Assembly: GCA_016183235.1 (NCBI GenBank) | Contig: JACPFA010000021.1 | Span: 33,596-97,595, forward strand | Source of the DNA: Deltaproteobacteria bacterium | GTDB lineage: Bacteria; UBA10199; DSSB01; JACPFA01 | Direction: 5' to 3' | Length of the DNA: 64,000 nucleotides | Shown here: one piece after another, positions 1,895 through 29,658 of the stretch | How positions within the stretch are numbered: position 1 is the stretch's first letter | How the letters are laid out: each line of letters opens with the position of its first letter | Notes under the pieces: model-generated | What the model saw: only the letters and a program-made list of their open reading frames with translations | Database searches by the model: none | Told to the model about the DNA's origin: nothing | Made by a program: the position numbers and the translations under genes

Positions 1895-3139
1895 ATGCTC
1901 AAGTTAACTCATCTTGAACTTGATACCCTCATGGTGCAAATGGGCTTGCTGCTATTGGCCGCCCGCCTCTTGGGCGAGGTTGCCCGTCGTTTCAAACAAC
2001 CCGTGGTGGTGGGGGAAATCTTGGCCGGGGTATTGTTAGGGCCTACAATTTTGGGGGCCATCAGCCCTGAATTTTTTTATAAAATTTTCCCCCTATCGGG
2101 TAGCACAGCATTAACCCTCAACGCCATTGCCTCGCTTTCTGCTGTGATGCTGCTTTTTATTGCGGGGATCGAAGTCGAACTTGAGATGGTGTGGCAAGAA
2201 GGCCGCAAGGCTTTGTTTACCAGCTTTGGCGGGGTGATTGTTCCTTTTGTTGTGGGTTTTGGGATTGCATGGTTTCTGCCTAATCTTTTTGAATATTATG
2301 AAAGCTACGATCGTTTTCTCATGCCCTTGTTTTTGGGAACGGCCTTGTCGATCAGTGCATTACCCGTGATTGCTAAAACTTTGATGGATTTGGATATTTT
2401 TAAAACCCGATTGGGTAATTTAATTATTGCCAGTGCCATGGCCGATGATCTGTTTGGCTGGATGATGTTTTCACTGATTATTGCTCGCATGGGTGCTGGC
2501 CCTGGGATCAATTTGCTCATGACACTTTTTTTAACGCTACTTTTTACCTTCGGCATGCTTACGCTGGGCAGAATCTTGTTAGACAGGTCTTTAACGTTGG
2601 TCAAAAAACATTTTGTTTGGCCCGGTGGTGTGGTTGCCTTTGCCTTGTCATTGTGTTTTCTGGGGGCGGCTTTTACCGAATTTATTGGGATTCACGCCAT
2701 TTTTGGCGCCTTTATTGTAGGGGTGGCTTTAGGTGATTCAAGGCATCTTTCCATGCAAGCCAGAGAAATTATTTATCAGTTTGTCAACAATGTGTTCGCC
2801 CCACTTTTTTTTGCTACCATTGGATTAAAGGTCAATTTTGTTGAAAATTTTAATTTGCTACTAACACTCATTGTGGTTTTTGCCTCCTATTTTGGGAAAT
2901 TGGTGGGTTGTGGGTTAATTTCTTATTGGTCGGGGTTTCAATGGCGAGAGGCCATGGCCATTGGCTTTGGCATGAATGCCCGTGGCGCCATGGTTATCAT
3001 CTTGGGATTATTAGCTTTGGAACATGAACTGATTCAAACCAATCTTTTTGTCTCTTTGGTCATCATGGCCTTGGTTACCAGCATCACCAGTGGCCCTTTG
3101 ATGAAGTATTTTTTAAAACCCACTCCGGCCACACGTTGA
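1895..3139 (+). CDS. Cation:proton antiporter (CPA2/Kef-type)
   Basis: 414 aa, polytopic. N-terminal LLGEVARRFKQPVVVGEILAGVLLGPTILG is the typical CPA2 Na+(K+)/H+ exchanger signature. Confidence 0.8.
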   Translation: MLKLTHLELDTLMVQMGLLLLAARLLGEVARRFKQPVVVGEILAGVLLGPTILGAISPEFFYKIFPLSGSTALTLNAIASLSAVMLLFIAGIEVELEMVWQEGRKALFTSFGGVIVPFVVGFGIAWFLPNLFEYYESYDRFLMPLFLGTALSISALPVIAKTLMDLDIFKTRLGNLIIASAMADDLFGWMMFSLIIARMGAGPGINLLMTLFLTLLFTFGMLTLGRILLDRSLTLVKKHFVWPGGVVAFALSLCFLGAAFTEFIGIHAIFGAFIVGVALGDSRHLSMQAREIIYQFVNNVFAPLFFATIGLKVNFVENFNLLLTLIVVFASYFGKLVGCGLISYWSGFQWREAMAIGFGMNARGAMVIILGLLALEHELIQTNLFVSLVIMALVTSITSGPLMKYFLKPTPATR

Positions 3140-3172
3140 CAAAAGGGTTTTTCTTAAGTAGGGCAGCGAACA

Positions 3173-3454
3173 ATGGGAAAAGCGCGTCAAAAATTAATTC
3201 TTTTTTTATTAGGGTTTTTCCTATCGCAGGGGATGGTGCAAGTGCTTCATGCCCATGCCTTGGGGGCTGGTAAATTAGCGGGGACTTGTGACACTTGCAT
3301 CCTTTTACAACCAACGAGTTTTGCCGAGGCTCATGATCCTTCTCTTAATATAGGTTCGTATCAAACCGATTTTTTATTTATTTATTCTAACCCCCTTCCA
3401 TTGGGTTTTTTTTGTGATCTACAGTTTTCAAGAGCCCCTCCCATTTTAAAATAA
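3173..3454 (+). CDS. Small membrane-anchored His/Cys-containing hypothetical protein
   Basis: 93-aa ORF with an N-terminal hydrophobic helix followed by HAHALGAGKLAGTCDTC. Lies upstream of the metal-uptake cluster. Weak RBS and no recognisable family. Confidence 0.3.
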   Translation: MGKARQKLILFLLGFFLSQGMVQVLHAHALGAGKLAGTCDTCILLQPTSFAEAHDPSLNIGSYQTDFLFIYSNPLPLGFFCDLQFSRAPPILK

Positions 3455-3462
3455 TGTCATAG

Positions 3463-3568
3463 ATGGATCCTCAGGTCTTAGCCCGGGATGACGTCATATA
3501 TATAGATCCTAGGTTTTAGTCCGGCATGATGGCGCTATGTCATCCCGGGCTAAGACCTGAGGATCCAT
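3463..3568. repeat. Palindromic element, family C (30-nt perfect inverted repeat)
   Basis: ATGGATCCTCAGGTCTTAGCCCGGGATGAC (3463-3492) has its exact reverse complement at 3539-3568, with a 46-nt spacer. Related copies lie at 41224, 44900, 54304 and 55311. Confidence 0.8.
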
Positions 3569-3594
3569 GATGACCAATGTTATGGATGTTTACG

Positions 3595-4758
3595 ATGAAG
3601 TTTATTTTATCAATACTTTTTTTATTTCTTTTCACGATCACTGGTTATGCTGAAGAAAGTCAGCCAACCACTGCAGAGGAAGAGATTCAGCAAATTAATC
3701 AGCAATTAAATCAATCCCCAGGCAGCTCTTCTGTTCCTGCTAAAAAATATTTTGGACCTTTTAGTTATCCTGCCACGAATCAGGGTTTGGCCAAAATTAT
3801 TCCCGATATTAGTGTTATCGGGAGTTTGGCGACCGCTTACTTTAAAGAGGAGCCCGCCGGCGAAACGGGCCATGAGCCTGCCCGTACGGGTTTTACCCTA
3901 CAAGAAATTGAGATAGCCCTTCAATCGGTCATAGATCCCTATTTTCGAGCAGACGTTTTTTTATCCGTCAGCGAAGAGGGATTTGAGTTAGAAGAGGGTT
4001 ATGCAACTACTTTGAGCTTGCCCAAGGGTCTTCAAATTAAGGCAGGAAAATTTTTGTTACCTTTTGGGCGACAAAATTCGAAACATCTTGAACAATGGGA
4101 TTTTGTGAATGCCCCCTTGGTATCAAAATATTTGTGGGGGCCGGAGGGCTTAAACGAGTTGGGGGCTGAAATAGCCTATACCTTTCCGACCCCCTTCTTT
4201 CTTCAACTGCAGGGGACCTTTAGTAACGGAGTCAATGAAGAAAGTTTTGATGGGAAACAAAAAAAAGACTTTTTATATCAGGGGCGTTTATCGACTAGTT
4301 TTGATTTCAATGAGAAATGGACTTTACTTTTAGGGGCCTCGGGTGCCTGGGGCTTTAATGACGAGCTGCCAGGAGCCTTTACCCAAATCTATGGAGGAGA
4401 CTTGTTAATTCGATACAGACCTTCTTCATACCGAGCTCTGACCTTGCAAGCGGAATATCTTTTTCGTGATAAGGAATTGGCAAGTGGCAAGGCTCAAGAT
4501 GGCGGTGGTTACCTATTTGCAAACTATCAGTTTGCAAAACGTTGGCACGCAGGGCTGCGCTACGATCAAGTGGGTTGGCCAGCAGGGCTCATCACGCGTG
4601 AGTTTCGTGTGAGCCCCGATATTACGTTTAATCCAACCGAGTTTTCTCGTTTGCGTTTACAATATGATTTTAGCAAGGTGCCAGGTCACGAGGCTAATCA
4701 TGCAGCTATTTTGCAATTGCAATATACGATGGGGCCTCATGGGGCCCATCCCTTTTAA
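3595..4758 (+). CDS. Outer-membrane beta-barrel (porin-like) protein, first gene of the metal-uptake cluster
   Basis: Start moved to MKFILSILFLFLFTITGYA (signal peptide). Alternating amphipathic strands and a C-terminal aromatic residue (..GAHPF) are typical of OMP barrels. Family not identified. Confidence 0.6.
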   Translation: MKFILSILFLFLFTITGYAEESQPTTAEEEIQQINQQLNQSPGSSSVPAKKYFGPFSYPATNQGLAKIIPDISVIGSLATAYFKEEPAGETGHEPARTGFTLQEIEIALQSVIDPYFRADVFLSVSEEGFELEEGYATTLSLPKGLQIKAGKFLLPFGRQNSKHLEQWDFVNAPLVSKYLWGPEGLNELGAEIAYTFPTPFFLQLQGTFSNGVNEESFDGKQKKDFLYQGRLSTSFDFNEKWTLLLGASGAWGFNDELPGAFTQIYGGDLLIRYRPSSYRALTLQAEYLFRDKELASGKAQDGGGYLFANYQFAKRWHAGLRYDQVGWPAGLITREFRVSPDITFNPTEFSRLRLQYDFSKVPGHEANHAAILQLQYTMGPHGAHPF

Positions 4759-4770
4759 TAGAAGCTTGTT

Positions 4771-5664
4771 ATGAAAAAATTATTTTTAACCATTTTAATA
4801 TTTATGAGTTTCATCTTACAGGCTCAAGGCAAAGTTAAAATTGTAGCAACATTGCCGGTGTTTGGATCTATTGCCCAAGAAATCGGAGGCGAACGAGTAG
4901 AGGTGACGAGTTTGGCATCGGCAGATCAAGATCCTCATTTTATCGATGCCAAGCCATCTTATGCTGTTTTATTGAATCAAGCGGATTTGTTGATCGAAGG
5001 TAATATGGGTTTGGAGACAGGCTGGTTACCACCTTTGTTGTTGCAAGCTAGAAATCCTAAAATCATGAAAGGCGGCAAGGGTTACGTGGATGCTTCGCAG
5101 GGAGTCGAGAGTTTAGAAATTCCACAAGGGGGGGTGAATTTATTCCAAGGTGATATTCACCCGCGAGGCAATCCACACCAATGGTTCGATCCGCGTGCGG
5201 TCAAGATTTTAGCGGTCAATATTAACCAGCATTTGGTTGCCATCGATGCTGAAGGCAAACCTTACTACGATGCTCAATTGAAAAACTTTATTGATCAATT
5301 GAATCAACATTTAAGTCAGTGGGCTCAATTGACCCAAGGATGGCGGGGTAAAAAGATCATTACCTATCATCGGAGTTTAAGCTACTTGGCGCATTGGTTA
5401 GGCCTTGAGGTCCGAGATACTTTGGAACCTAAGCCAGGCATACCGCCTAGTACTAGGCGAATTGAAGAGTTGGTAAAAACTTTACAAAACGATAAAATTT
5501 CTTTGCTATTGAGCGAAGAATTTTATCCTCGTAGTTTAGCGGACTATCTGGCGCAGAATATGAAAGTTCCTTTGTTGGTGATTAAGGCGCAACCCCATGC
5601 TAAGCAAAAATATGTCGATTGGATGGATTCGTTGCTTAACCAAATGCAGAAGAAAATTTTGTGA
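4771..5664 (+). CDS. Metal (Zn/Mn) ABC transporter substrate-binding protein, ZnuA/TroA family
   Basis: 297 aa with a signal peptide. VATLPVFGSIAQEIGG...DPHF and ITYHRSLSYLA motifs belong to cluster-9 metal-binding proteins. No His-rich loop, so metal specificity is unresolved. Confidence 0.8.
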   Translation: MKKLFLTILIFMSFILQAQGKVKIVATLPVFGSIAQEIGGERVEVTSLASADQDPHFIDAKPSYAVLLNQADLLIEGNMGLETGWLPPLLLQARNPKIMKGGKGYVDASQGVESLEIPQGGVNLFQGDIHPRGNPHQWFDPRAVKILAVNINQHLVAIDAEGKPYYDAQLKNFIDQLNQHLSQWAQLTQGWRGKKIITYHRSLSYLAHWLGLEVRDTLEPKPGIPPSTRRIEELVKTLQNDKISLLLSEEFYPRSLADYLAQNMKVPLLVIKAQPHAKQKYVDWMDSLLNQMQKKIL

Positions 5665-6341
5665 ATGAACTGATTTTAACTTTAGAAAGTTTGATTGTAG
5701 GTTACTATCAAACCCCTTTGAGCCAAGCCATTTCTGCTTCGGTGCGTACGGGTGCGAGGGTAGGGGTGATGGGCCCCAACGGTGCGGGTAAGAGCACTTT
5801 TATAAAGACGCTCTTAGGTATTTTGAGGCCTGTGAGAGGGAATTTTCATTGGTTGCGGTCCGTGCGGCTTGGTTATGTGCCTCAAGAAAGAAATTTTGAT
5901 CCGCTCTTTCCATTAACGGTTCAAGATTATCTGCAGATGGGTTCTTTAAAAAGGGTCGAGGCACTTGGTGAAAAAGAGGTGGAGGCCATCCTACAGCAGT
6001 TTGACTTGCTGGCCTTACGTTATCAATTGGTTCGTTCCCTTTCGGGTGGGCAAAGACAGCGCGCATTGATTGCTAGGGCACTGGTGAGCCAGCCCTCGGT
6101 GCTATTGCTCGATGAGGCTTGGAATTCACTCGATGCTAACTTCAAAAGTTACTTAGAAGAAAATCTATTTCAATCTACCCAAGATCGGGGGCTTACTTAT
6201 TTTTTAGTGGAACATGATTTGTCGAGGCTCAAACGTTTAAGGGTAGAGCAGATTTTTTTATTTTCTCAAGACGGGGTGTGGATAGGTAATTTAGAAGAAT
6301 TATTGGCCAATCCCAAGCTTGTGGAGTTATCGGGTGATTAA
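5661..6341 (+). CDS. Metal ABC transporter ATP-binding protein (ZnuC-like)
   Basis: Walker A GPNGAGKST, ABC signature LSGGQRQR, Walker B LLLDEA. 4-nt overlap with the preceding gene. Confidence 0.85.
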   Translation: MNELILTLESLIVGYYQTPLSQAISASVRTGARVGVMGPNGAGKSTFIKTLLGILRPVRGNFHWLRSVRLGYVPQERNFDPLFPLTVQDYLQMGSLKRVEALGEKEVEAILQQFDLLALRYQLVRSLSGGQRQRALIARALVSQPSVLLLDEAWNSLDANFKSYLEENLFQSTQDRGLTYFLVEHDLSRLKRLRVEQIFLFSQDGVWIGNLEELLANPKLVELSGD

Positions 6342-7245
6342 AAGAGTTTTTTATTATTTATTGTTCACCATTGTCTTGTTAGCAGCGTTTTCTTATTTCC
6401 GTATTGCCGATGCCAAAACCTTCTTAAGTAATTTTTTTCTGTTTCGTGACCCCTTAATTGGGGGGATGGTAGCAGGGCTAGTTGTGGCCTATTTGGGCGT
6501 TTATATGCTGTTCAATCGCATTGTGTTTATGAGCCTTGCGGTGACACAAGGCGCGGGTTTGGGCATTTTTCTGGCTCTTCTGGTAGGGGCATGGTTGGGG
6601 CTTGAACATATGAATGCCTGGATAAGTTTGGGTTCTGGGATTGGGCTTGCGTTGTTGATTAGTTTAAGTTTTGGATTTTATCGGCGACAACGGCATTTGT
6701 CAGATGAGTCCATGATAGGCATTCTTTATGTCTTGGCTTCTAGCCTTATTGTGCTGGTGGGGGATCGAATTTCCGAAGGCCGTCATGAAATTGATAATTT
6801 GCTTTTTGGTAATGCCGTTGCGGTAACAACCCATTATTTGTGGGTGCTGGTTATAGGTGCAGGATTATTGCTGTTGGTACATTTGTTGTTTTATCGGCAA
6901 TTTTTGTATTGTTCGGCAGATCCTGAATTTATGCAAACCCAAGGCGTTAAAGTGGGGCTGTGGAGAGCCTTGTTATACTTGACTTTGACGGTGGGCATTA
7001 CCTTAGCTGTAAAATTATTGGGGAGTCTTACGATTGTTGCCTTGATTGTGATTCCACCGTTTATTGGGTTACGTCGAGGTAAAAATGCTGCCAGCGCTTT
7101 TGTGATAGCAAGTCTCTTAGGCCTGGTTTGCCCAGCCGTTGGTTTTTATTTATCTTACCTATTTTCATTGCCAGCAGGTGCTTCAGTGGTGAGTGTTTGC
7201 GGATTATATCTTTTATTAAGCCTTCTGGAAGATAAATTCCGTTGA
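6319..7245 (+). CDS. Metal ABC transporter permease (ABC-3/ZnuB-like)
   Basis: 308 aa, polytopic. Position and hydrophobic profile are typical of ABC-3 permeases. The start (TTG 6319 or a later GTG) is uncertain. Confidence 0.8.
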   Translation: MWSYRVIKRVFYYLLFTIVLLAAFSYFRIADAKTFLSNFFLFRDPLIGGMVAGLVVAYLGVYMLFNRIVFMSLAVTQGAGLGIFLALLVGAWLGLEHMNAWISLGSGIGLALLISLSFGFYRRQRHLSDESMIGILYVLASSLIVLVGDRISEGRHEIDNLLFGNAVAVTTHYLWVLVIGAGLLLLVHLLFYRQFLYCSADPEFMQTQGVKVGLWRALLYLTLTVGITLAVKLLGSLTIVALIVIPPFIGLRRGKNAASAFVIASLLGLVCPAVGFYLSYLFSLPAGASVVSVCGLYLLLSLLEDKFR

Positions 7246-7269: not shown

Positions 7270-8478
7270 GTGGTTCACCTTATGTCGCAGAAAAAACTGG
7301 TTATTTATTTAGGATTGATTTTATCAATTTGTGCTCAGTGGATCATTTTAAAATTTTCTGGGATTACGCTTCACACCCCATGGAATGCGGTGGCCCCAGG
7401 GGTGGCCATCTTTGGAGCGGCCTTTTTATTATCTTGGGCGGCGGAGCTTGCACAATTTGAAATCCCCGAGGCTTTAGCGATTTCGTTTTTGGCGTTTATT
7501 GCGGTGTTACCCGAATATGCTGTCGATGCCTATTTTGCTTGGGAAGCCGCAAAAGATCCTCAATACATTCATTATGCCACTGCCAACATGACGGGCGCTA
7601 ATCGGCTGCTCATCGGTATGGGCTGGGCAACGGTGATTTTTGCCTATTATTTTCGCTCTAAAAAAACCAAGGTGGTTTTGCCGAAAACCAGCCGCATTGA
7701 TTTGATGGCCCTTACTTTGGCCACGCTTTACTGTTTTATCATTCCTATTAAGGGCACCTTAACTTATTGGGATTCGATTGTTTTATTGAGTATCTTTGCC
7801 CTCTATATTTTTAAGCAAAGCCAAACTCACCATGCTGAACCTGAGGTAGAGGGGCCGGTGGCTGTGCTGGCTAAGTTGCCGCGGGGTAGGCGAATTTTTG
7901 TGACGGTATTGTTATTTTTTATTTCGGGCTTTACCATTTTTATTGCCGCAGAACCCTTTGCCGAAGGGCTTTTAGAATCCGGCCGAAGGTTTGGGGTAGA
8001 AGAATTTATTTTAGTGCAATGGTTGGCGCCGCTGGCCAGTGAATCGCCAGAATTTATCGTGGCGATTATTTTTGCATTAAACAAAAAACCCACAGCGAGT
8101 TTATCAACCTTGGTTTCTTCAAAAGTTAACCAATGGACTTTGCTGGTAGGCATGCTGCCTTTAATTTACAGTTTTTCGGCAGGGCAAATTTTGCCGATGG
8201 GTTTAGATGCTCGCCAATCCGAAGAAATTTTATTAACGGTAGCGCAATCGTTTTTTGCCATTGCCGTTATCGCCAACTTGTCGATTTCACTCTGGGAGGC
8301 TTTAATTCTCTTTGGACTGTTTGCGACCCAACTCTTCTTTACCTCAGGTGCCGTGCGCCATGTCTACGCCTATGTGTATATTGGCCTAGCGTTCTTACTG
8401 CTCCTAACCCAAAAGGAAAACCGCCGTGGTCTTTATGCAGTTATGCGTGAGACTTTCACATTGTCTGCCAAGCATTAA
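7270..8478 (+). CDS. Ca2+/cation antiporter (CaCA, sodium/calcium exchanger membrane region) family protein
   Basis: 402 aa, polytopic. Two alpha-repeat-like segments (VLPEYAVDAYFA and ASESPEFIVAIIFA) resemble CaCA exchangers. Confidence 0.55.
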   Translation: MVHLMSQKKLVIYLGLILSICAQWIILKFSGITLHTPWNAVAPGVAIFGAAFLLSWAAELAQFEIPEALAISFLAFIAVLPEYAVDAYFAWEAAKDPQYIHYATANMTGANRLLIGMGWATVIFAYYFRSKKTKVVLPKTSRIDLMALTLATLYCFIIPIKGTLTYWDSIVLLSIFALYIFKQSQTHHAEPEVEGPVAVLAKLPRGRRIFVTVLLFFISGFTIFIAAEPFAEGLLESGRRFGVEEFILVQWLAPLASESPEFIVAIIFALNKKPTASLSTLVSSKVNQWTLLVGMLPLIYSFSAGQILPMGLDARQSEEILLTVAQSFFAIAVIANLSISLWEALILFGLFATQLFFTSGAVRHVYAYVYIGLAFLLLLTQKENRRGLYAVMRETFTLSAKH

Positions 8479-8496: not shown

Positions 8497-10125
8497 TCAT
8501 AATCTTTTTCTTTGCCATCGAGCCAATAGCAACACGACCAAACCGCTTAGCAAAAATTGGATGAATATGGGGCTGGAGGCTTGCGAGGTTAGGTTACAAC
8601 CCTTGGAGCCAGTTTCTTGGGTTGTCGTTGGGTTGAAGTCCTTCTTTTCAGTATTGTTGATCGTGCCTGTGGGCGACGGCTTAGGTGCGGGTTGGGTACT
8701 GGCTGGAGGTTGAGTACTGGCTACAGGTTGAGGCGTTTCATCACAAACACTCGGATGATCGCTGTCTGAATCTTTTTGGTCTGGGTTGGCAACCATGGGG
8801 CAATTATCAAGGTCATTTTTGACACCATCACCATCGATGTCACTATCACAGGCATCGCCTTCAGCGTCGCCATCTAGATTTTTTTGATCGGTATTAGGAG
8901 TGATGAGGCAGTTGTCGGCACCATTGGGTACATCATCACTATCCATGTCACCATCGCAAGCATCTCCGCCATCATTCTGCCCATCGGTGTTTTTTTGGTC
9001 TGGGTTGGCAACCATGGGGCAATTGTCTTTTTCATCAAGAACTTTATCGTTGTCGTCATCGACGTCACAGATATCGCCATAAATATCATCGTCAGTATTT
9101 TTTTGATCAGGGTTGGCATCATTCGGGCAATTATCACCCGGTTCCAAAACACCGTCGCCATCTTTATCATATTGAATTTCATAAACTCCATTGCCAGTGC
9201 CGGCGTAGAGTTTATTGCCAAAAACAGCAAAGGACAAAACATTCTGGGCATTCGCCACCATCATTTTATCGAGACCAGCTTGTTTCCATTGGCTACCATC
9301 AAAACTAAAAACGCCTTGCCCATCGGTTCCAGCATAAAGAGTTTTGTTAAATACAATGAAGGCATTGATTTTTTTATTGATCAGGGCTTGCTCGGCAAGA
9401 GTCCATTGGTCATTCACCCCCCTGTAATGGAAAACTCTACCATTTTCAGTGCCAGCACGGAGTAAGTTAATAAAAAAGGTTAAAGCCGAGACTTTCAGGT
9501 CTGAAAGCCCATTAGATTTTGCAACCCAGCCTTTATTGATATCAAATAAAAACACCCCCTCGTTGGTTGCAATATAAAATTTGGTGCTCGAAGCAGCCAT
9601 CGCTCGAACACTTTTGTCGTTAAGACCTTTATTAAAAGCTTCCATCTGATTCTTATCGGCATTTAATTTAAACACTCCATCTAGGGGGGTACTGGCAAAG
9701 AGCGTGTCTTTATTTTCAAAGGGATAAATGACCAGATGGTCGACTGTTTTGGTGGAATCTAAACCAGGGATAGGATTAGACCATGTGCCTTCTTTAATGG
9801 AATAAGATTTTACCCCACCATCAAAGATGCCGGCATAAAGCATTGCGTCAAGGACCATAAGACTTTGTATATTTTTGCTAGCAAGTAGGTCTGGTTTTAA
9901 AGGGGTCCAATTATTACCATCATATTTGTATACACCGTCTTCTTTGGTGCCCGCATAGAGGGGGGTCAAAGCACGGTAGTCGGTTAAAGCTTGAACCGTT
10001 TTTCCTTCAAGCCCCGTAAGGCCCCAATGGTTAATTTCAGCTTGAGTGGAATGTGGCAAAAAAAATTGAAAAAAGATAACGATGGCTAAAGACAATAAAT
10101 TAATTTTTCGAAACATACCCCTCAC
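8497..10125 (-). CDS. Secreted 7-bladed beta-propeller-like protein with thrombospondin type-3 repeats and a C-terminal GCNL-TM-basic sorting tag (paralog 1)
   Basis: Signal peptide. Seven (L/F)YAGT..G(V)(F/Y) blade motifs. At least four DNCPxxxNPDQxDxD TSP3 repeats (about 8745-9135). Pro/Thr linker. Tail is SKGCNL + hydrophobic helix + RWQRKRL. Confidence 0.75.
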   Translation of the reverse strand: MRGMFRKINLLSLAIVIFFQFFLPHSTQAEINHWGLTGLEGKTVQALTDYRALTPLYAGTKEDGVYKYDGNNWTPLKPDLLASKNIQSLMVLDAMLYAGIFDGGVKSYSIKEGTWSNPIPGLDSTKTVDHLVIYPFENKDTLFASTPLDGVFKLNADKNQMEAFNKGLNDKSVRAMAASSTKFYIATNEGVFLFDINKGWVAKSNGLSDLKVSALTFFINLLRAGTENGRVFHYRGVNDQWTLAEQALINKKINAFIVFNKTLYAGTDGQGVFSFDGSQWKQAGLDKMMVANAQNVLSFAVFGNKLYAGTGNGVYEIQYDKDGDGVLEPGDNCPNDANPDQKNTDDDIYGDICDVDDDNDKVLDEKDNCPMVANPDQKNTDGQNDGGDACDGDMDSDDVPNGADNCLITPNTDQKNLDGDAEGDACDSDIDGDGVKNDLDNCPMVANPDQKDSDSDHPSVCDETPQPVASTQPPASTQPAPKPSPTGTINNTEKKDFNPTTTQETGSKGCNLTSQASSPIFIQFLLSGLVVLLLARWQRKRL

Positions 10126-10152
10126 CCCCTAATTAAATAACTAATTAAATAA

Positions 10153-11427
10153 CTAGTTCTTTTTTATTCTCTGTGGGCGTAGCCTTAGGGCTAAACCCAT
10201 AAAAAAGAATAGAGTGAAAAACCAAATAAACCCCACAGATGATTGAGCTGAGGCGTTTAAACTACATCCACTACCCCCGCCCGTAGGTGGAGTGGTGGCT
10301 TTGACTATTGTAAAATCAGGGTCACAAACATTGCCAATCCCATCGGCATCATCGTCTTTTTGATCGACGTTAGCAGCTTTAGGGCAATTGTCGCTTGCAT
10401 CGACCACACCATCACCATCGGTGTCAGCTGCGGGTGGCGAAGGAGGGGTAGAAGCAGGTGGCAGTTCAGGTTCAGTTGATGGAGGTGGTGAAGGTGGCGT
10501 AGCATCTCCTGGACTTGTTTGAAAATGAATCTCATACACCTGATTCTCAATGAGTGCATAGAGACTTGATCTATCGGCACTCAATTTCGTGGCAGGTTTG
10601 GATAGAGGCTTAAAAGATTCCCACTTACTTTTGTTGAGACTATAGATATTTTTATCAGGTGTAGCGGCGAGTAACGTGTCATTGTATTCTATCAGATCGG
10701 TTATGGATAGAGAGCCCAAACCGTCGGAAGCACTCTTAAAAAGGGCATCGGCATCCTTTTTGTAAAAAATACCCTTACTTCGATAACTGACAAAAAGATG
10801 ACCGTCGAATGCAAGCAGGTCTGTTACCCAATCCTCGGGGAGTCCTACATTGAGTGCTTTTTCAAAACTATTGTTGGAGATGAAAAACAAACCTTCATTG
10901 GTTCCTACGTATGAGCTGCTACCAAAGCGGTAAAATGCAGTGACTCGGGTTTGTTCCGCACTGCTGAGGATGCCCCAAGCTATACCCGCGCGGGAAATAA
11001 CACGACCTTCACTTGTTCCAAACATCAGGGTGTCACCTATACTGGTGAGCATGGTTATGGACTCAGCTGGAACGACACGAGGGGGTAATTCGACAGGTTT
11101 CCAATTTTTGTTCGTAAAGGAATAAAACCAAAGTTGGTAACCTCCGGCAGCAAAAAGTCCTTTATCGCTTGCGGCCAGATATTTAATGGGAGAACCTTCC
11201 GGGCCAAATTTTTCCCATCCACTACCATTATGATAAAAAACCCCTTCCTTAGTCCCTACGTAAAGGCCAGCTCTTGTGGTTGGATCGCCAATAAGATCAT
11301 ATAGTTGCAAACCATCTGGAAGGCCTTTAAGCTCGGTCCATTCGTTAACCCCTCCTTTGCTTGGAGTAGAAAATAACAAGATTAATACGACTACACAAAA
11401 TAGATTGGATAATTTGGACACCTTCAT
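10153..11427 (-). CDS. Secreted beta-propeller-like protein, one TSP3 repeat, GCSL-TM-basic tag (paralog 2)
   Basis: Signal peptide and seven blade-like motifs. Pro-rich linker, then DTDGDGVVDASDNCPKAANVDQKDDDADG. Tail is GGGSGCSL + helix + RLRPQRIKKN. Confidence 0.75.
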   Translation of the reverse strand: MKVSKLSNLFCVVVLILLFSTPSKGGVNEWTELKGLPDGLQLYDLIGDPTTRAGLYVGTKEGVFYHNGSGWEKFGPEGSPIKYLAASDKGLFAAGGYQLWFYSFTNKNWKPVELPPRVVPAESITMLTSIGDTLMFGTSEGRVISRAGIAWGILSSAEQTRVTAFYRFGSSSYVGTNEGLFFISNNSFEKALNVGLPEDWVTDLLAFDGHLFVSYRSKGIFYKKDADALFKSASDGLGSLSITDLIEYNDTLLAATPDKNIYSLNKSKWESFKPLSKPATKLSADRSSLYALIENQVYEIHFQTSPGDATPPSPPPSTEPELPPASTPPSPPAADTDGDGVVDASDNCPKAANVDQKDDDADGIGNVCDPDFTIVKATTPPTGGGSGCSLNASAQSSVGFIWFFTLFFFMGLALRLRPQRIKKN

Positions 11428-11527
11428 CCCATGCCTCCTAAGAAATTAAAGATTCCCAGTTCAATTAAGATTGTACGGGAAAGGGTAGGGCTTTGTAAAA
11501 TGTTTTTTTGTAAGTCAGGTTCCATTT

Positions 11528-11565
11528 ATGAAAAATATTATGAAAAATATGATATGAAAAATATG
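11528..11565. repeat. Short tandem repeat 3x ATGAAAAATAT(T/G) leading into a family-G hairpin remnant
   Basis: Read directly: ATGAAAAATATT ATGAAAAATATG AT ATGAAAAATATG, followed by ACGAAGGAACAATAAATTAAATAATTA, which recurs at 15698. Confidence 0.6.
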
Positions 11566-11981
11566 ACGAAGGAACAATAAATTAAATAATTACGACATGT
11601 TAAGCTTACTTATTTCGAAAGGAATTCTAAAATTCTTGAAGCAAAGGGTGTAGGTACAATAAGGAGGGGAATTTTTTTCTCTCCTGGATAATGAGGGAGT
11701 TTTGCCACGTATTCAGTCTGATAAGAAGGTTCAAAATTGCCGATCTTCACCAGACAAGAGCTTTGTGGTTCCAACAATGCAAAACAAAAGCATGAAACAA
11801 AAGCATGACGAAGGAATAGTAAATATAAGAATTACAAGGAGTTAAGCTTCCTCCGTCATACGATTCCTATATTTACATCACCTGCCAAGAATTGATTTTA
11901 ATTCGCTCTAATTTCTTTAAATTGCGTAAAATTAAGAAAAAATTATCTTGAAATTACGTAAAATCAAGATATGCTAGGGGA

Positions 11982-13301
11982 ATGGAATATTATAAAAGAC
12001 AGCTAGAAGATGCGTTGCTGGGTTATCTAAACGATCGGCAACTCCATAAAAATGTGCTTATCTTGGCGGGTGCTAGGCAAGTGGGGAAAACAACCCTCAT
12101 TGAGCAAATCACTCAAAAAAAGCCTGTTCTTTTACTCCATCTTGAAAAAGAACCCTCCATTGCAGAACACATCGATCGTTGCGAAAACTTTCAAGCCTTT
12201 GAGGATTACCTAAAAGAAGTTCATCGTTACCATCCCGAGAAACAAATTCTGGTCATTGATGAAGCACAAACCTCTCGCAAGCTAGGCAGTTTTGTGCGTT
12301 TTATGAAAGAGGATTGGGAATACGCCAATGTGATTATCACAGGCTCACTGGTTAGTGAAATTTACCAAGAAACCTCACGGACACCCGTAGGGCGAGAAAC
12401 TCATTTAGAACTTTGGCCCATGAGTTTCAAAGAATATTTGTTTGCCCTTGAACAAAACTCCCTGGTTAAGGCCTTGGAAGAATATCATCCCCTCCAGAGT
12501 TTTTCAGCGGAGAAACATGAACGATTATTAGAACATTTTAATCGTTATCTCGTGGTGGGGGGGCTGCCTGAGGTTGTGCGGTATGCGCTCCATGGTAAAG
12601 ATTTTCAAAAAATAAGAGCCGATATTTATAAAAGTTATGAAGATGATTTTATTCGTTATTATTCGATTGAAGAAGTTAATTTATTTAAACGCTCCATGGA
12701 AGCCGTGGCGAGCAATGTCGGATCCCCTAGCAAAGATAGTCAAGTCATACGATTGGATGCCCCCGGGTATAAAAAAGTTGCAAGTATCTTCGCTCGACTG
12801 GAAAAATGGAAACTCATCATCAAGTGTGAACAATTGGGCATTGAACCAGAAAAAAATAAATTTCATCCTAAACGTTATTTATATGATGTTGGTATATTGG
12901 GAGATCTGCGACTAAAAGGGTTACCCTTCATCGGTCTAGATGAATTACATTCGCCCATGCTTCGCACTCCACTGGGTGGTTTAATAGAAAATCACGTGGC
13001 ACTTTCACTTAAAATCCAATTTAATGATAATTTGTTTGGGCTAAGACTATCTTCTCGAGCTGAGATTGACTTTGCAGTAAAATTTAATCATCAAGTTTAC
13101 CCCGTTGAATGTAAACTCAGCCCAAAATTAAAAAATAATTTTTTAATTGGCCTGAAAACTTTTGAAAGTAAAATGGGTCTAAAGGGATTTCGTGGTTTCT
13201 TACTGTTTGGTGGTATGCCAAAGAAAATTGATGATCCAAAAGTGTTGGTACTTCCTTATTACTTTGCCGATGAAATAAAAAGATTGCTAGAAAGATTTTA
13301 G
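11982..13301 (+). CDS. AAA+ ATPase with DUF4143-type C-terminal domain
   Basis: 439 aa. Walker A GARQVGKTT and Walker B LVIDEAQ. Overall layout matches the widespread ATP-binding AAA/DUF4143 family. Confidence 0.75.
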   Translation: MEYYKRQLEDALLGYLNDRQLHKNVLILAGARQVGKTTLIEQITQKKPVLLLHLEKEPSIAEHIDRCENFQAFEDYLKEVHRYHPEKQILVIDEAQTSRKLGSFVRFMKEDWEYANVIITGSLVSEIYQETSRTPVGRETHLELWPMSFKEYLFALEQNSLVKALEEYHPLQSFSAEKHERLLEHFNRYLVVGGLPEVVRYALHGKDFQKIRADIYKSYEDDFIRYYSIEEVNLFKRSMEAVASNVGSPSKDSQVIRLDAPGYKKVASIFARLEKWKLIIKCEQLGIEPEKNKFHPKRYLYDVGILGDLRLKGLPFIGLDELHSPMLRTPLGGLIENHVALSLKIQFNDNLFGLRLSSRAEIDFAVKFNHQVYPVECKLSPKLKNNFLIGLKTFESKMGLKGFRGFLLFGGMPKKIDDPKVLVLPYYFADEIKRLLERF

Positions 13302-13405
13302 TGTTAGTGGATGGCTTTTCTAAAATGCAATTTTGGTGCAACAAATTACTATGAAGCAGAATTTTTCCCCATGTTGATTTGGGGTCAGACCATTAAATAA
13401 AAAAT

Positions 13406-13438
13406 AAGCCGGAGCTTAAGTTGGCTCCGGCTTATTTT
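13406..13438. terminator. Bidirectional rho-independent terminator
   Basis: 10-bp stem AAGCCGGAGC/GCTCCGGCTT with an 8-nt loop. A-tract upstream and T-tract downstream. Lies between convergent genes. Confidence 0.6.
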
Positions 13439-13456
13439 GCTAAATTTGAGGCAGTC

Positions 13457-14674
13457 TTATTTTTTTCGGAAATAAAGTAGCCTGCCTAGTCCTAGCAACA
13501 TGAGTGGCATAAATGTGAGCCACGAAAGTAGCGAGGTGCCAGGTGTGGAGAGGATGCTTAGACTACACCCACTGCTTTTACCTTCGCTAGGGGGTGGTTC
13601 GTTTTGACCAAAGTCAGGACCATCCGTGTCTAGGGGAGGTGTTGGGACGGGTGGGGTGGGGGATGGGGTTGGAGGCTGTTCGGGTTGTGCGGCGAAATGG
13701 ATTTCGTAGATTCGAGAAGTATTGCCGATGTAAAGACTACCATTTTTTGTAGGAGCTAGATGGATCACATTTATATTACCAAATGCCGAAGCTAGTGAGG
13801 GAGCAAAGGCTTGCCACGTTGAACCGTCTAAATAATGAAGACGACCGGGCTGTTGGCCAAATGCGATACGCACAAGTAAATAAAGGCGATCGCCATAACT
13901 TTCGAGTCCCATGATCGAAGCATTTGGTTCAAAAGTAAGGCCATCGGATATCTTTACAAAATTAGGTTTGTCAAAATCTTTGGCGTAGACTTCGGTATTA
14001 TAAGCAACAAAAAGGGTATTATTAAAGGTCGTGATAGCCTTGACATTCGCTGCTGGTAAAATGTCGTGGTTGGGCCTTATTGGGTTACCGTAGACGTAAA
14101 GCCCTTTACTGGTCCCTATTAAAATCATTTCATTAGGTTCATGTTGGTAGATGGCATTGATAAGCACAGTCATCTGCTGATTTGCAAGGTCGGGATACTG
14201 GGTGCGAAGATCAAGTGTTTGCCACGCACGCAGGTCGGCTCTCGTCGGAGCCAAGACTTTACCCCGGTTGGTTCCTAAGATGACATTGCCGTTACCCACG
14301 CTGATTGTGACAATTAATTCGTCGCCAGGAGGGGCTGGGATGGCAATTTCGTCCCAAATTCGTTTGCCGGAATTATAACGCCATAATTGTTTACCATCGG
14401 TAGTATAGAGAACATGGTTGATGATACCTATTTCTAAGATGATTTTATTTTGCAGGCCAAAGGGCTCCCAGCGATTTTCGGCATAAATATATTTATACAC
14501 ACCCGTATTGGTACCTGCATAAAGAGAACTTCCGCTACCACCTACGATACTGTTGATATTACGTACATTTCCGGGTGATAGTTCAGTCCACGCATTCAAT
14601 TCTGCGTGGCTGGTGCTGGTGATAGAAAATAAAAAGACAATGGCTAAGAAAGCCTTGAGTGTGTTCCCCTTCAT
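13457..14674 (-). CDS. Secreted beta-propeller-like protein, GCSL-TM-basic tag (paralog 3)
   Basis: 405 aa with a signal peptide, AELNAWTEL and blade motifs. Pro-rich linker, a truncated LDTDG TSP3 remnant, and tail SSGCSL + helix + RLLYFRKK. Confidence 0.75.
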   Translation of the reverse strand: MKGNTLKAFLAIVFLFSITSTSHAELNAWTELSPGNVRNINSIVGGSGSSLYAGTNTGVYKYIYAENRWEPFGLQNKIILEIGIINHVLYTTDGKQLWRYNSGKRIWDEIAIPAPPGDELIVTISVGNGNVILGTNRGKVLAPTRADLRAWQTLDLRTQYPDLANQQMTVLINAIYQHEPNEMILIGTSKGLYVYGNPIRPNHDILPAANVKAITTFNNTLFVAYNTEVYAKDFDKPNFVKISDGLTFEPNASIMGLESYGDRLYLLVRIAFGQQPGRLHYLDGSTWQAFAPSLASAFGNINVIHLAPTKNGSLYIGNTSRIYEIHFAAQPEQPPTPSPTPPVPTPPLDTDGPDFGQNEPPPSEGKSSGCSLSILSTPGTSLLSWLTFMPLMLLGLGRLLYFRKK

Positions 14675-14888
14675 AACCCTATACCTCCTAAATTAAAATT
14701 CACCCCCGCTTCTTTTATTGTAAAGAGCTTATCTGATGAGGGCAAGCCAAGAGTTGTTGAGCTAAGGGGATTTTTGTTAGAAAGGCAAACCTCTCAAGAA
14801 AATTGTGTATAAAGCGTTTTTCATTAGTGCAAAATAGACTTTATATGTTTTTTATTCATGAACTTGCTTGTCATCTTTTGGAAGGCTC

Positions 14889-14922
14889 TTGACAGCGGTT
14901 TTAAATTATGTACACTGTACAT
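14889..14922 (+). promoter_or_regulatory. Putative sigma-70 promoter with overlapping palindromic operator of the TA operon
   Basis: TTGACA (14889-14894), 16-nt spacer, TACACT (14911-14916). Perfect 7-1-7 palindrome ATGTACA-C-TGTACAT (14908-14922) lies 5 nt before the antitoxin ATG. Confidence 0.4.
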
Positions 14923-14926
14923 TGTT

Positions 14927-15172
14927 ATGAAACAGTTTTCTGCCACTGAGGCTCGAAAGAATTTTTTTAAACTTCTTGATTCTGCTGTAGAAGGCGAAAC
15001 AGTGACGATTAAAAGAAAAGGGATTGTATTAAAATTAGTTCCCAGCCGCCCCCAAAAAACTAAGAAGGTTTCGGGTTATTCTCCTTATATTCATAGCGAT
15101 GTGAGCAAGGCCGATCAATGGGTTTGGCATTGGGACCCAAACAAGGGGCTCATTTCTAAGAAAAACAGGTAG
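14927..15172 (+). CDS. Phd/YefM-type antitoxin
   Basis: Start moved to MKQFSATEARKNFFKLLD, the typical Phd/YefM N-terminus. The track ORF start at 14858 would run through the promoter. Followed 3 nt later by the PIN gene. Confidence 0.7.
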   Translation: MKQFSATEARKNFFKLLDSAVEGETVTIKRKGIVLKLVPSRPQKTKKVSGYSPYIHSDVSKADQWVWHWDPNKGLISKKNR

Positions 15173-15175
15173 CTC

Positions 15176-15556
15176 ATGTCTTCAAAAGAAGTGCTTCTCG
15201 ACACGCATGTCTTTTTATGGCTTCTCTCACAGTCAAAACGGCTAAAGTCTTTAATCTGGTTAAAGGACTTTTCTATTTATTGTATTTCACCAATTAGCAT
15301 TTTAGAAATAAGATTTCTTGAAGAATGTGGTCGATTGAAGATCGATTTGGAAAAAATCATCGAGGGGATTCGGTTTGATGGTCGATTTAAAATCGATGAT
15401 GTCTCGCTCGAAAGATTGTGCTTTCAGGCATTAGAAATTTCATGGACTCGTGATCCCTTTGACCGTTTTTTGGTAGCCCATAGTTCGCTTCGGCGAATCC
15501 CTTTAGGAACCTGTGATCATACGATCCAAAAGAACTACCCCAGGGTCGTTTTTTAG
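15176..15556 (+). CDS. vapC: PIN-domain toxin (VapC family)
   Basis: 126 aa. LLDTHVFLWLL N-terminal PIN motif and a C-terminal acidic residue (TCDHTI). Confidence 0.8.
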   Translation: MSSKEVLLDTHVFLWLLSQSKRLKSLIWLKDFSIYCISPISILEIRFLEECGRLKIDLEKIIEGIRFDGRFKIDDVSLERLCFQALEISWTRDPFDRFLVAHSSLRRIPLGTCDHTIQKNYPRVVF

Positions 15557-15688
15557 CTATTTCATCCTAAGCCAATGCCCAATTTTCATACTAACCTAAA
15601 GCGCCAGCTCCGCCAACCATGGAGCAGCTTTACAAATTTGGATTTTGTCGATCGTTCGTGGGGATAAATTTTTATCGTGAAAAATATT

Positions 15689-15757
15689 GAAAAATATGAC
15701 GAAGGAACAATAAATTAAATAATTATAATACGTTAGGCTTCCTTCGTCATATTTTTC
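15689..15757. repeat. Hairpin element, family G
   Basis: 18-nt arms GAAAAATATGACGAAGGA / TCCTTCGTCATATTTTTC around an AT-rich loop. Degenerate copies at about 11555-11620 and 11803-11866. Confidence 0.6.
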
Positions 15758-15850
15758 CTTTTGGATTACCGAGTTTGCAAAGACTTTAGAAATGCCAGAA
15801 ATTTGGGATGATGTGAAACATATCATCCAGCAGACGATTAAATAAAAAAT

Positions 15851-15884
15851 AAGCCGGAGTGTAGTTTCGCTCCGGCTTATTTTC
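15851..15884. terminator. Rho-independent terminator (duplicate of 13406)
   Basis: Stem AAGCCGGAG/CTCCGGCTT followed by ATTTT. Part of the duplicated segment. Confidence 0.55.
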
Positions 15885-15902
15885 CCTAAATTTAAAAAGG
15901 TC

Positions 15903-17130
15903 TTACTTTTTTCGGAAGTAAAATAGCCTGCCTAGTCCTAGCAACATGAGTGGCATAAATGTGAGCCACGAAAGTAGCGAGGTGCCAGGTGTGGAGAGGA
16001 TGCTTAGACTACACCCACTGCTTTTACCTTCGCTAGGGGGTGGTTCGTTTTGACCAAAGTCAGGTGGTATCGATGACACCATCACCATCTGTGTCTAGGG
16101 GAGGCGTTGGGACGGGTGGAGTGGGTGGTGGCGGTGGCGGTTCGGGTTGCGCGGGGAAGTGGATTTCGTAGATTCGAGAAGTATTGCCGATGTAAAGGCT
16201 GTCCTTGGTAGAAGTTAGGTAAAGCATGATTGTATTATTAAGGGTTGAAGCAATGGTAGGTGAGAATTCTTTCCAGCTTGAACCTTCGAGATAGAAAAGA
16301 CGACTTGGATAATCATTTCCACCACGTACCAATAGATAGAGACTCTCACCTTGTTTGGTAAAGCCCCTTACCACTGGCGCAGCCCGGTCAAACTCGAGAC
16401 CATCGGATAATTTCACAAAGTTAGATTGGTCAGAGGTTTTGGCATAAACTCCCGTTTTGTAGGCAACAAAAAGAGTGTTATTAAAGACAATAAGATCTTC
16501 TACACCATCTCGTGGTAGGACACCTCCGCCGATAGCCATCGGGGGATGAGATTGACCCACAATTGCTGCATAAAGCCCCCTGCTGGTTCCAATCACAATG
16601 ATTTTGGAATCATATTGGTGAATGGCACTGACTACAATAGTTTCATCCTCGAAATCGTAACTGTTCCAAACGGCTTGGTTAGGGCCAAACTCTCTGAACA
16701 CAAAGACCTTGCCTTTGTTGGTTCCTAGTATAAGGGTATCGTCACTCTTACTGAGAGAACGAATAACTTCTTCCCGTTCAAAAGAAGCAGGCAATGTAAG
16801 CTCATTCCATTTTTTGCCTGCGGCGTCGTAATGCCACAATTTCTTGCCATTAGCAGCATAGAGAACATGGTTGATGATACCTACTTCTAAGATGGTTTGG
16901 TCTTGCAGGCCAAGGGGCTCCCAACGATTTTCGGCGTAAATATATTTATGCACACCCTTATTGGTACCTGCATAGACATTAAGAGACATTTTGCCACCTA
17001 CGATGCTGTGAATGACGCCAACATCTCCGGGTGATAGTTCAGTCCACGCATTCAACTCTGCATGGCTGGTGCTGGTGATTGAAAATAAAAAGACAATGGC
17101 TAAGAAAGCCTTAAGTGTGTTCCCCTTCAT
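15903..17130 (-). pseudogene. Frameshifted paralog 4 of the propeller/GCSL-tag family
   Basis: The 356-aa ORF (16060-17130) stops after ..LDTDGDGVIDTT. The sorting tag (PDFGQNEPP..SSGCSL..FYFRKK) continues in another frame (15903-16088). Relative to paralog 3 there is a net +19-nt difference at 16065-16083. Confidence 0.65.
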
Positions 17131-17295
17131 AACCCTATACCTCCTAAATTAAAATTTACCCCCGCTTTTATTATAGGAAGCTTATCTGATGTGGGCAAGC
17201 TAGGAGTTGTTGAGCTAAGGGGATTTTTGTTAAAAAAACAAACCTCAATGCGAAGCGATGTAGAAACCGTTTTTTGTTAGTACAAGCGATGCACT

Positions 17296-28523: not shown

Positions 28524-28531
28524 ATTTGTCT

Positions 28532-28608
28532 GTCATTGCGAGGAGTGTAACGACGAAGCAATCTCTTTCTTAGTGTGAGATCGCCACGCCCGTTGGGCTC
28601 GCGATGAC
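28532..28608. repeat. Palindromic element, family A, inside the cus operon
   Basis: GTCATTGCGAGGAGTGTAACGACGAAGCAATC...GGGCTCGCGATGAC fills the 92-nt cusB-cusA spacer. Confidence 0.75.
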
Positions 28609-28615
28609 AGTGTCT

Positions 28616-29647: not shown

Positions 29648-29658
29648 GATTTGTTTCC

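Follow-up and report, generated by a model that had tools for sequence, protein, structure and literature searches.

A candidate variant of the myxosortase-class sorting signals on clustered propeller proteins of a groundwater bacterium

The window analysed here is a 64-kb stretch of the 98.6-kb contig JACPFA010000021.1. It belongs to a metagenome-assembled genome (MAG) recorded by NCBI as 'Deltaproteobacteria bacterium' (locus-tag prefix HYU97) and carries four homologous minus-strand open reading frames (ORFs), P1 to P4, annotated as hypothetical or as 'thrombospondin type 3 repeat-containing'. Their shared layout comprises a signal-peptide-like segment, a propeller domain, thrombospondin type 3 (TSP3) repeats in varying number, and a tail in which a Gly-Cys motif precedes a transmembrane (TM) helix and a basic cluster. 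The question raised by this locus is whether the tail merely holds these proteins in the membrane or acts as a sorting signal, as an earlier note had proposed by likening it to MYXO-CTERM. We conclude that the tail is, on balance, probably a variant, low-GC and single-Cys, of the C-terminal sorting signals known for the myxosortase class and would be processed as such. The definition of Cys-containing C-terminal sorting tags, and of the CPBP myxosortases that act on them, dates only from 2023-2025. To date they have been reported from Myxococcota and Bradymonadales, some beta- and gammaproteobacteria (JDVT-CTERM), Synergistetes and Thermococcales. To find one in a low-GC groundwater lineage, in a form that curated models miss, would broaden the range of hosts known for the system, and for specialists such a tail variant is an expected kind of extension.

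The C-terminal tail of P1 to P4

The four genes and their parts are located as follows.

8497-10125, minus strand: P1, 542 aa, with signal peptide, propeller, four TSP3 repeats, linker and tail
10039-10125, minus strand: P1 signal peptide
9169-10038, minus strand: P1 predicted seven-bladed propeller (AlphaFold2 model and Foldseek)
8737-9168, minus strand: P1 four TSP3 repeats (TSP_3, 92 bits in four stretches)
8611-8736, minus strand: P1 Pro/Thr linker
8500-8610, minus strand: P1 tail, GSKGCNL, TM segment and RWQRKRL (GCNL at 8590-8601)
10153-11427, minus strand: P2, 424 aa, with signal peptide, propeller, linker, one TSP3 repeat and tail
11353-11427, minus strand: P2 signal peptide
10522-11352, minus strand: P2 propeller
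10429-10521, minus strand: P2 Pro-rich linker
10312-10428, minus strand: P2 single TSP3 repeat (TSP_3, 29.9 bits)
10156-10278, minus strand: P2 tail, GGSGCSL, TM segment and RLRPQRIKKN (GCSL at 10258-10269)
13457-14674, minus strand: P3, 405 aa, with signal peptide, propeller, linker and tail; TSP3 repeat lost
14603-14674, minus strand: P3 signal peptide
13694-14602, minus strand: P3 propeller (AlphaFold2 model)
13580-13693, minus strand: P3 Pro-rich linker
13460-13579, minus strand: P3 tail, KSSGCSL, TM segment and RLLYFRKK (GCSL at 13559-13570)
16060-17130, minus strand: P4 N-terminal ORF, 356 aa, ending prematurely at DTDGDGVIDTT*
17059-17130, minus strand: P4 signal peptide
16156-17058, minus strand: P4 propeller
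16063-16155, minus strand: P4 linker and TSP3 remnant
15903-16088, minus strand: P4 tail remnant, out of frame (…EGKSSGCSLSILSTPGTSLLSWLTFMPLMLLGLGRLFYFRKK; GCSL at 16005-16016)

The earlier note had placed four paralogous ORFs here. Three of them lie where it put them, and the fourth, 15903-17130, is not a single ORF. The tail remnant of P4 is almost identical to the tail of P3, from which it differs at one residue, and the same hairpin comes after both.

We compared eight distinct tails. The window and the corresponding locus of a related organism (contigs L002 and L028, described below) each supplied four and a distant contig (L001) one, those of P3 and P4 being counted once. Their consensus opens with a Gly/Ser-rich run and the motif G-C-[S/N/G]-L; some 9 polar residues then lead to a hydrophobic helix of ~17 residues, and 2-4 Lys/Arg residues follow. 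The Gly at position -1, the Cys and the Leu at +2 are invariant, the helix sequences diverge between tail types, and a Pro stands at +8 or +9 in six of the eight tails. The form of tail described in the earlier note (motif, TM segment and basic cluster) thus holds, while the 'invariant' GC[SN]L motif widens once the relatives are added. Several tails have Gly-Gly ahead of the Cys (GGGSGC, GGSSGC, KGGC), the last type being seen in the GKGGCSL of the distant contig; P1 (SKGC) and P3 (SSGC) do not. The TM segments of P3, P4 and P0153, a protein of the related organism, contain Pro. No other ORF of the window bears such a tail.

The tail Cys is the sole unpaired one in every protein, all other cysteines of the mature chain being paired, mostly within the TSP3 pattern DNC...GDxCD. 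P1 has four Cys pairs and one unpaired Cys, and in P3 Cys370 is the only Cys among 405 residues, which makes P3 a very clean test substrate. In the AlphaFold2 model of full-length P3 (propeller at residues 27-327, disordered segment at 328-380, helix at 381-404), the motif occupies residues 369-372, within the disordered segment and 11 residues ahead of the helix. For comparison we used a control set of 20 Cys-TM-Arg tails from TSP3-rich proteins, only part of which were scored on TIGR03901.2; such tails occur on about 20 of 117 unrelated TSP3-rich database proteins. The distance from the Cys to the first basic residue is 26-29 in the lineage tails versus 20-31 (median 24) in the 20 control tails, and both sets have a Pro shortly ahead of the helix and Gly/Ser before the Cys. 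These features support the view that the tail behaves as a sorting module of the Cys-containing, MYXO-CTERM-like class and not as an incidental anchor. The invariant C-x-L also provides a testable clue to how Rce1-like proteases may read their substrates.

The locus in a related organism

The same locus was found in a close relative, on a contig from Rifle groundwater (L028) and its copies (L002, L029 and L030/L016). In the flank, the Na/Ca-exchanger proteins of window and relative are 96% identical and the DNA is 89.6% identical over 1.58 kb; the similarity of an ABC-3 permease fragment is about equal to that of the exchanger. Between the flanks, DNA alignment is limited to the 3' modules coding for TSP3 repeats and tail (74-91%), and among positional counterparts the propellers share 32-61% protein identity and the C-terminal modules 62-76%. 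At the position of P2, L002 and L028 carry a 571-aa delta-60-repeat protein (TIGR02608, E 3.8e-19) which resembles P2 only over the last 90 residues (79% identical), a segment spanning the TSP3 repeat and the tail. The tail is a portable module, as this near-identical TSP3-and-tail segment on the unrelated ectodomain of a delta-60-repeat protein shows. The earlier note had reasoned that tails confined to the four paralogs, with no co-occurring candidate enzyme, would be simple TM anchors; in the close relative the tail is also found on the delta-60-repeat protein, which refutes its restriction to a single paralog family. Nor does the pairing with a propeller-TSP3 ectodomain define a system, as had been suggested, since the tail travels with other ectodomains and the combination of TSP3 with MYXO-CTERM is already known.

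Window and relative each have four tagged proteins in the locus, with a different gene content. The relative has an extra P1-type gene (P0160) and is without P3, the AAA_14/DUF4143 gene and the Phd/PIN pair that are present in the window; in its locus there is instead a gene of 155 aa that weakly matches a nucleotidyltransferase (Lnu(A)-like). The AAA_14/DUF4143 and Phd/PIN insertions fit a recombination-prone, island-like locus. Within the window, the DNA of P3 and P4 is 85-87% identical at the 5' end (signal peptide) and at the 3' end (tail and downstream hairpin) and has diverged in mid-gene. On the distant contig L001, a P1-like propeller (45% identical) is followed by a Cys-containing middle of ~250 residues, a Pro-rich linker and the GKGGCSL tail, and the next gene, ended by the contig edge, codes for another delta-60-repeat protein.

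The locus thus appears as a hypervariable diversification hot spot, in which ectodomains are swapped or diverge fast and stalk, tail and flanks are conserved. The contrast between flanks and ectodomains, as read from the sequences, points to recombination and to diversifying selection on the exposed domains. With 96% identical flanks against ectodomains that are replaced or only 32-61% identical, this selection at the cell surface is likely to be strong, in an organism known only from metagenomes, and the locus offers an unusually clear example of swapped ectodomains above a stalk and anchor that are conserved.

Two side observations concern the surroundings. On L001, two adjacent YVTN/YncE-like beta-propeller proteins with lipobox-like N-termini (…LLNAC and …LLSC) are encoded at 2237-4638 (plus strand), a few kb upstream of the Cys-tailed gene, which suggests a neighbourhood rich in surface proteins. 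The Na+/Ca2+ exchanger gene adjoins the cluster of Ca-binding TSP3 proteins in convergent orientation both in the window and in L028 (7320-8510, minus strand). This may reflect a link of Ca2+ export to TSP3 loading, or merely conserved gene order.

A sorting signal or a plain anchor

The likeness to MYXO-CTERM-type sorting signals put forward in the earlier note finds support in the architecture, the unpaired Cys, the spacing and the portability of the tail, and fails at the cutoffs of the curated models. TIGR03901 and the other CTERM hidden Markov models (HMMs) were run from NCBIfam release 20, in which the cutoffs are 20 bits for TIGR03901.2 (MYXO-CTERM) and 27 bits for NF033191 (JDVT-CTERM). 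The MYXO-CTERM model gave no match at E<=10 for the tails of P1, P2, P3 or P4, and the P2 tail reached 7.9 bits on JDVT-CTERM, under the cutoff. Higher scores, still below the cutoffs, were found elsewhere in the lineage: P0160 of the related organism reached 18.5 of the 20 bits needed on MYXO-CTERM and 22 of the 27 on JDVT-CTERM, and P0075, from the same lineage but another contig, 12.9 bits on JDVT-CTERM. GlyGly-CTERM, PEP-CTERM and the other non-Cys CTERM models gave no match at E<=10 for any lineage tail. By comparison, TIGR03901.2 gave 28-32 bits to seven of nine control tails tested, among them a GCGCSL tail (31 bits); of the other two, a protein annotated as MYXO-CTERM by JGI (GGCNL, TM segment and RRRKR) scored 18 bits and the last 11 bits. 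GGCNL, GGCSL and GCGCSL also occur in MYXO-CTERM-type tails elsewhere, which does not support the lineage-specific GC[SN]L form that the earlier note had thought possible. A tails-only profile run against a 5.8-billion-protein database returned two candidates with common words, none of which scored.

Several results must be set against our interpretation. No curated CTERM model, including TIGR03901.2, TIGR03382 and NF033191, reached its cutoff on the window tails, and P1 and P3 had no MYXO-CTERM or JDVT-CTERM match at all at E<=10. An HMM of our own, built from 17 TIGR03901-positive TSP3 tails, gave the window tails 0-8.7 bits (P1 8.7, E 0.25 within the window; the others 0-5). Because it did not recognise them significantly, we do not claim membership in MYXO-CTERM by sequence. 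Compared with MYXO-CTERM, the lineage tails are single-Cys, never GCGC or CC, with an invariant Leu at Cys+2, a mixture of Lys and Arg in place of an Arg run, and a Pro inside the TM segment of P3. Neither the 64-kb window nor L001, L002 and L028 contain a CPBP or other candidate sorting protease. Finally, the tails seen are drawn from a single narrow lineage, namely the window MAG, a close relative and a more distant contig, and common ancestry could therefore account in part for the invariance of the motif.

These same results are what would be expected if the tail were a plain C-terminal TM anchor, which is the main rival explanation. P1 to P4 would then be type I (bitopic) periplasmic proteins, uncleaved and unlipidated, and the GC motif a family-specific remnant or a structural detail. 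Sub-cutoff scores on every curated model, a non-significant score on our own HMM, tails confined to one narrow lineage and the lack of a sorting enzyme in the window and related loci all suit such an anchor. It does not account for a G-C-x-L motif that stays invariant while the TM segment and flanking residues diverge, for a tail Cys that is always the lone unpaired one, for the fixed distance of the motif outside the helix in a disordered linker, or for the movement of the module as a whole between unrelated ectodomains. Long Pro-rich/TSP3 stalks and hypervariable ectodomains would, moreover, be expected of surface rather than periplasmic proteins. We therefore regard a plain anchor as unlikely, though it is the alternative to be taken most seriously.

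In agreement with the earlier note, which saw no such protease in the window, a motif and TM screen of all ORFs of at least 120 aa in the window and related loci revealed no CPBP-like protein (EExxxR, FxxxH, HxxxN); the multi-TM ORFs there are all identified transporters or DUF456 proteins. The neighbourhoods of P0250 and P0214, proteins of other organisms with GGCSL/GGCNL tails, likewise contained no CPBP gene. The signal could also be genuine and be read by another class of enzyme: a rhombosortase (with GGGSG as a GlyGly-type motif), an exosortase-like protease or one as yet undescribed. The Gly-Gly before the Cys in several tails (GGGSGC, GGSSGC, KGGC) is compatible with this, as is the TSP3 protein P0192, which ends in a GlyGly-type tail with no Cys before the TM segment. 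In GlyGly-CTERM the TM segment follows directly after the motif, unlike here, where about 10 polar residues lie between the two. P1 and P3 do without Gly-Gly directly before the Cys, and the only sub-threshold matches were to the two Cys-type models, with none to GlyGly, PEP or non-Cys models. Another enzyme class thus seems improbable. It is more improbable still that the unpaired Cys forms an intermolecular disulfide (in a dimer or as a tether to an envelope protein) with the helix remaining as anchor: a lone free Cys, exposed in a disordered segment beside the membrane, would suit this role, but nothing in the data indicates a partner, and a disulfide leaves unexplained why Gly at -1 and Leu at +2 are invariant and why the spacing is MYXO-like.

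The closest known systems can be compared in turn. The MYXO-CTERM tails (TIGR03901.2, and the older TIGR03382 'GC_trans_RRR'; myxosortases MrtX, MrtC and MrtP of the CPBP family) are, like those described here, tripartite and located at the extreme C-terminus of signal-peptide proteins. Both begin with a Gly/Ser run and an invariant Cys, after which some 9 small or polar residues, frequently with a final Pro, precede the TM segment, and the basic cluster lies at a similar distance from the Cys; neither has a protease gene alongside, and both are frequently paired with TSP3 (as in MtsC). MYXO-CTERM tags several to dozens of proteins per genome, to be set beside the four counted in the window and the four in the related locus. 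In the published MYXO-CTERM logo the TM segment is free of charged and Pro residues and a second Cys (GCGC/CC) is frequent (10.1101/2023.06.07.544157). The differences from MYXO-CTERM extend, beyond those listed above, to an aromatic-rich TM segment in the lineage tails, to the scores (window tails miss TIGR03901.2, and the best of the lineage has 18.5 bits against the cutoff of 20) and to the host, a groundwater MAG of ~44% GC labelled only 'Deltaproteobacteria bacterium' and not placed by that label in Myxococcota or Bradymonadales. A GC content of ~44% is lower than in most cultured Myxococcota.

JDVT-CTERM (NF033191, protease MrtJ) has, like the lineage tails, one invariant Cys and a Pro a little ahead of the TM segment, and gave the best sub-threshold score of the lineage (P0160, 22 bits). 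It differs in that all lineage scores lie under 27 bits, in having a near-invariant D-P where S-P is found here, and in having a single substrate beside mrtJ, as opposed to several substrates without an adjacent protease. MtsC of Myxococcus xanthus likewise combines a TSP3 stalk with a Cys tail, and P1 matches the MtsC model NF047638 at 4e-39 over the TSP3 region; TraA, the polymorphic kin-recognition receptor of M. xanthus and a MYXO-CTERM protein, similarly has an outer domain that varies above a conserved stalk and anchor. With MtsC and TraA/TraB the homology is restricted to TSP3, and a propeller takes the place of the PA14-like domain. The C-x-L motif further recalls the C-a1-a2 of CaaX proteins (Rce1, MmRce1), with Leu at the aliphatic a2 position, and myxosortases are Rce1 homologs. 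Here, in contrast to CaaX, the motif is followed by ~35 residues including a TM helix and not by one terminal residue, and P1 to P4 are extracytoplasmic.

According to Haft (10.1101/2023.06.07.544157), the shortness and strong divergence of the MYXO-CTERM region call for lineage-specific models. For that reason we treat the tail as a variant working like MYXO-CTERM; by the test of the curated models it is no member. The tails would provide sequences for such a lineage-specific HMM, for proteins now annotated as 'hypothetical' or 'TSP3 repeat protein'. In the experimentally supported MYXO-CTERM model (PMC11980579; 10.1101/2023.06.07.544157), Sec export, temporary anchoring by the helix and lipidation of the Cys are followed by CPBP/Rce1-type cleavage and delivery to the surface through a type II secretion system.

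By analogy with this model of Guo, Haft and Wall 2025, we propose that the host is a Gram-negative groundwater bacterium in which P1 to P4 would be cell-surface proteins, the propeller serving as a variable ligand-binding ectodomain on a Pro-rich/TSP3 stalk and the tail being a divergent, low-GC, single-Cys form of the myxosortase-class signals (MYXO-CTERM, JDVT-CTERM). The proteins would be exported by Sec, with removal of the signal peptide by signal peptidase I. The C-terminal helix would then hold them in the inner membrane, with the Lys/Arg cluster predicted on the cytoplasmic side. The free Cys of G-C-x-L, ~11 residues outside the helix, would be lipidated, and a CPBP/Rce1-type intramembrane protease encoded elsewhere would cut just after the Cys, removing the helix. 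The lipid-anchored product would finally reach the outer surface, probably via the type II secretion system. Our observations concern the substrate side (architecture, invariant unpaired Cys, its position and portability) and every enzymatic step is transposed from the model; taken as a whole, we judge this explanation reasonably likely.

More tentatively, the locus may be a cassette system for strain-specific surface receptors, in which propeller, delta-60-repeat and CARDB-like ectodomains are mounted on a TSP3 stalk and a lipid-anchoring G-C-x-L tail. Phage or predator pressure, or kin discrimination as for TraA, could drive it, and a new Rce1-like protease subfamily could read the Leu at Cys+2. 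We find this wider scenario possible but doubtful; if true, it would extend the myxosortase system past Myxococcota and Bradymonadales.

Ectodomains, repeats and neighbouring genes

As the earlier note had it, P1 to P4 all start with a signal-peptide-like segment, which by eye ends in an AxA-type site (e.g. TQA|E, SHA|E). N-terminal lipoprotein processing was rejected on this reading by eye, the signal peptides having AxA-like sites and no lipobox Cys. Right after the signal peptide comes a motif first described as (E/V)(I/L)N.W, which we recovered in all four proteins as (E/G)(I/L/V)NxW and which is, in both AlphaFold2 models, the first beta-strand, closing blade 7. These models, of the P1 N-domain (mean predicted local distance difference test 75.9, predicted template-modelling score 0.77) and of full-length P3 (73.8 and 0.67, respectively), each contain 28-29 strands arranged as seven four-stranded blades. 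Foldseek matches were to seven-bladed propellers including beta'-COP, YCF48 and BT4673, at template-modelling scores of 0.70-0.76; other matches were G-beta and PorZ, and the BT4673 sensor was 19% identical. A profile of eight family members run against the PDB matched the periplasmic propellers of Bacteroides hybrid two-component sensors (4a2l, 2e-16; 3ott/3va6, 3e-15), whereas the Pfam propeller models, taken singly, were all under their cutoffs on P1 to P4. The seven-bladed propeller that had been proposed from the blade motifs is therefore what structure prediction returns, and the ectodomain of P1 to P4 is predicted to be such a propeller, related to those of the Bacteroides sensors.

The propeller is by itself an ordinary, widespread surface-protein module, since its profile found 31,580 relatives at E<=1e-3 among 1.84 billion representative proteins, most of them multi-propeller proteins bearing type IX secretion system (T9SS) tails. 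The T9SS C-terminal sorting domain (a beta-sandwich of ~80 aa, NPFNP...KLxLxK) present in most of these relatives is absent from P1 to P4. Scans of genome and metagenome contigs with the P1-type propeller profile yielded distant propeller proteins with T9SS or other tails in delta-proteobacterial, Polyangiaceae, Ignavibacteriota and other MAGs, as well as one contig identical to the related organism's locus. P1 to P4 thus have the blade motif and seven-bladed fold in common with the Reg_prop propellers (PDB 4a2l, 3ott, 3va6) and with the LFAGTxxGGVFxSxDxGxxW T9SS family, but those proteins are sensors or T9SS-sorted, whereas here a TSP3 stalk and a Cys tail follow a single propeller.

P1, P2, P3 and P4 have 4, 1, 0 and 0 TSP3 repeats, respectively. 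On TSP_3 (PF02412, gathering score 25 bits) P1 reached 92 bits, with four stretches and four Cys pairs, and P2 29.9 bits, with one pair; both show the DxDxDGxxDxxDNC...D motif of the family. The range of 'zero to four or more' repeats given in the earlier note accordingly begins at zero but ends at the four of P1, as judged from PF02412 and the Cys census. The Pro-rich linker also attributed to this layout was found in all four proteins (Pro/Thr in P1). Both repeat-less genes carry deletions relative to P0153, the intact 426-aa ortholog of P4 in the related organism. P3 is missing 93 nt, in frame, and with them the TSP3 repeat. P4 is missing 74 nt of the TSP3 repeat; because of this deletion its ORF is frameshifted, stopping after ...DTDGDGVIDTT, and the tail goes on in a different frame. 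The right-hand junction of the two deletions is identical. The lesion in P4 may be biological or an assembly error.

About one in three TSP3-rich database proteins has a different conserved, Cys-rich domain at its C-terminus, with the pattern …LCPCxGPRGxxxxWKNHGKYVSCVAKxxxxFVxxGLITxxEKDAIVSxAAQSSCGxKK (P0158, P0162, P0163, P0166, P0168, P0175-P0177 and many others), which looks like an alternative module at the C-terminus of TSP3 stalk proteins. Opposite the TSP3 repeats of P1 runs an antisense ORF of 193 aa with ~4 apparent TM segments (8884-9465, plus strand); similar ORFs face the TSP3 repeats in L002, L016 and L028, and they are most likely artefacts of the codon pattern of the repeat and not genes.

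The following elements flank or interrupt the cluster.

7270-8478, plus strand: Na+/Ca2+ exchanger family gene, convergent with P1, forming the conserved right-hand flank
11982-13301, plus strand: AAA_14/DUF4143 ATPase gene between P2 and P3
13401-13438, minus strand: terminator-like hairpin directly 3' of P3
14858-15556, plus strand: Phd/YefM antitoxin and PIN toxin pair between P3 and P4 (Phd match weak, under the Pfam gathering score)
~15846-15883, minus strand: related hairpin 3' of the P4 tail

P2 lies 27 nt upstream of P1, and given this short gap the two are probably co-transcribed. Promoter-like hexamers were noticed upstream of P4 (TTGCCC-17-TATAAT, 17170-17198, minus strand) and of P3 (TTGCCC-17-TACAAT, 14717-14745, minus strand); their match fits a duplication of the whole 5' module together with its regulatory DNA. 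Overall, the promoter and terminator scan of the window was not above chance.

The remaining genes of note provide ordinary context: a ZnuA/ABC/ABC-3 metal uptake operon with an OmpL-like porin gene in front (3577-7245, plus strand) and a look-alike of an RND-type efflux operon, named from sequence only (25125-30924, minus strand). An ORF of 1852 aa (58306-63864, minus strand) stands out as a stretch of 51-56% GC versus 40-47% elsewhere in the window and may have been acquired horizontally; its only match, near residue 1450, is a weak one to an acyltransferase (PF01553), and a NGNGNGNG run lies near its C-terminus. A protein of 1620 aa (34921-39783, plus strand) has a C-terminal FHA domain as its sole recognisable domain.

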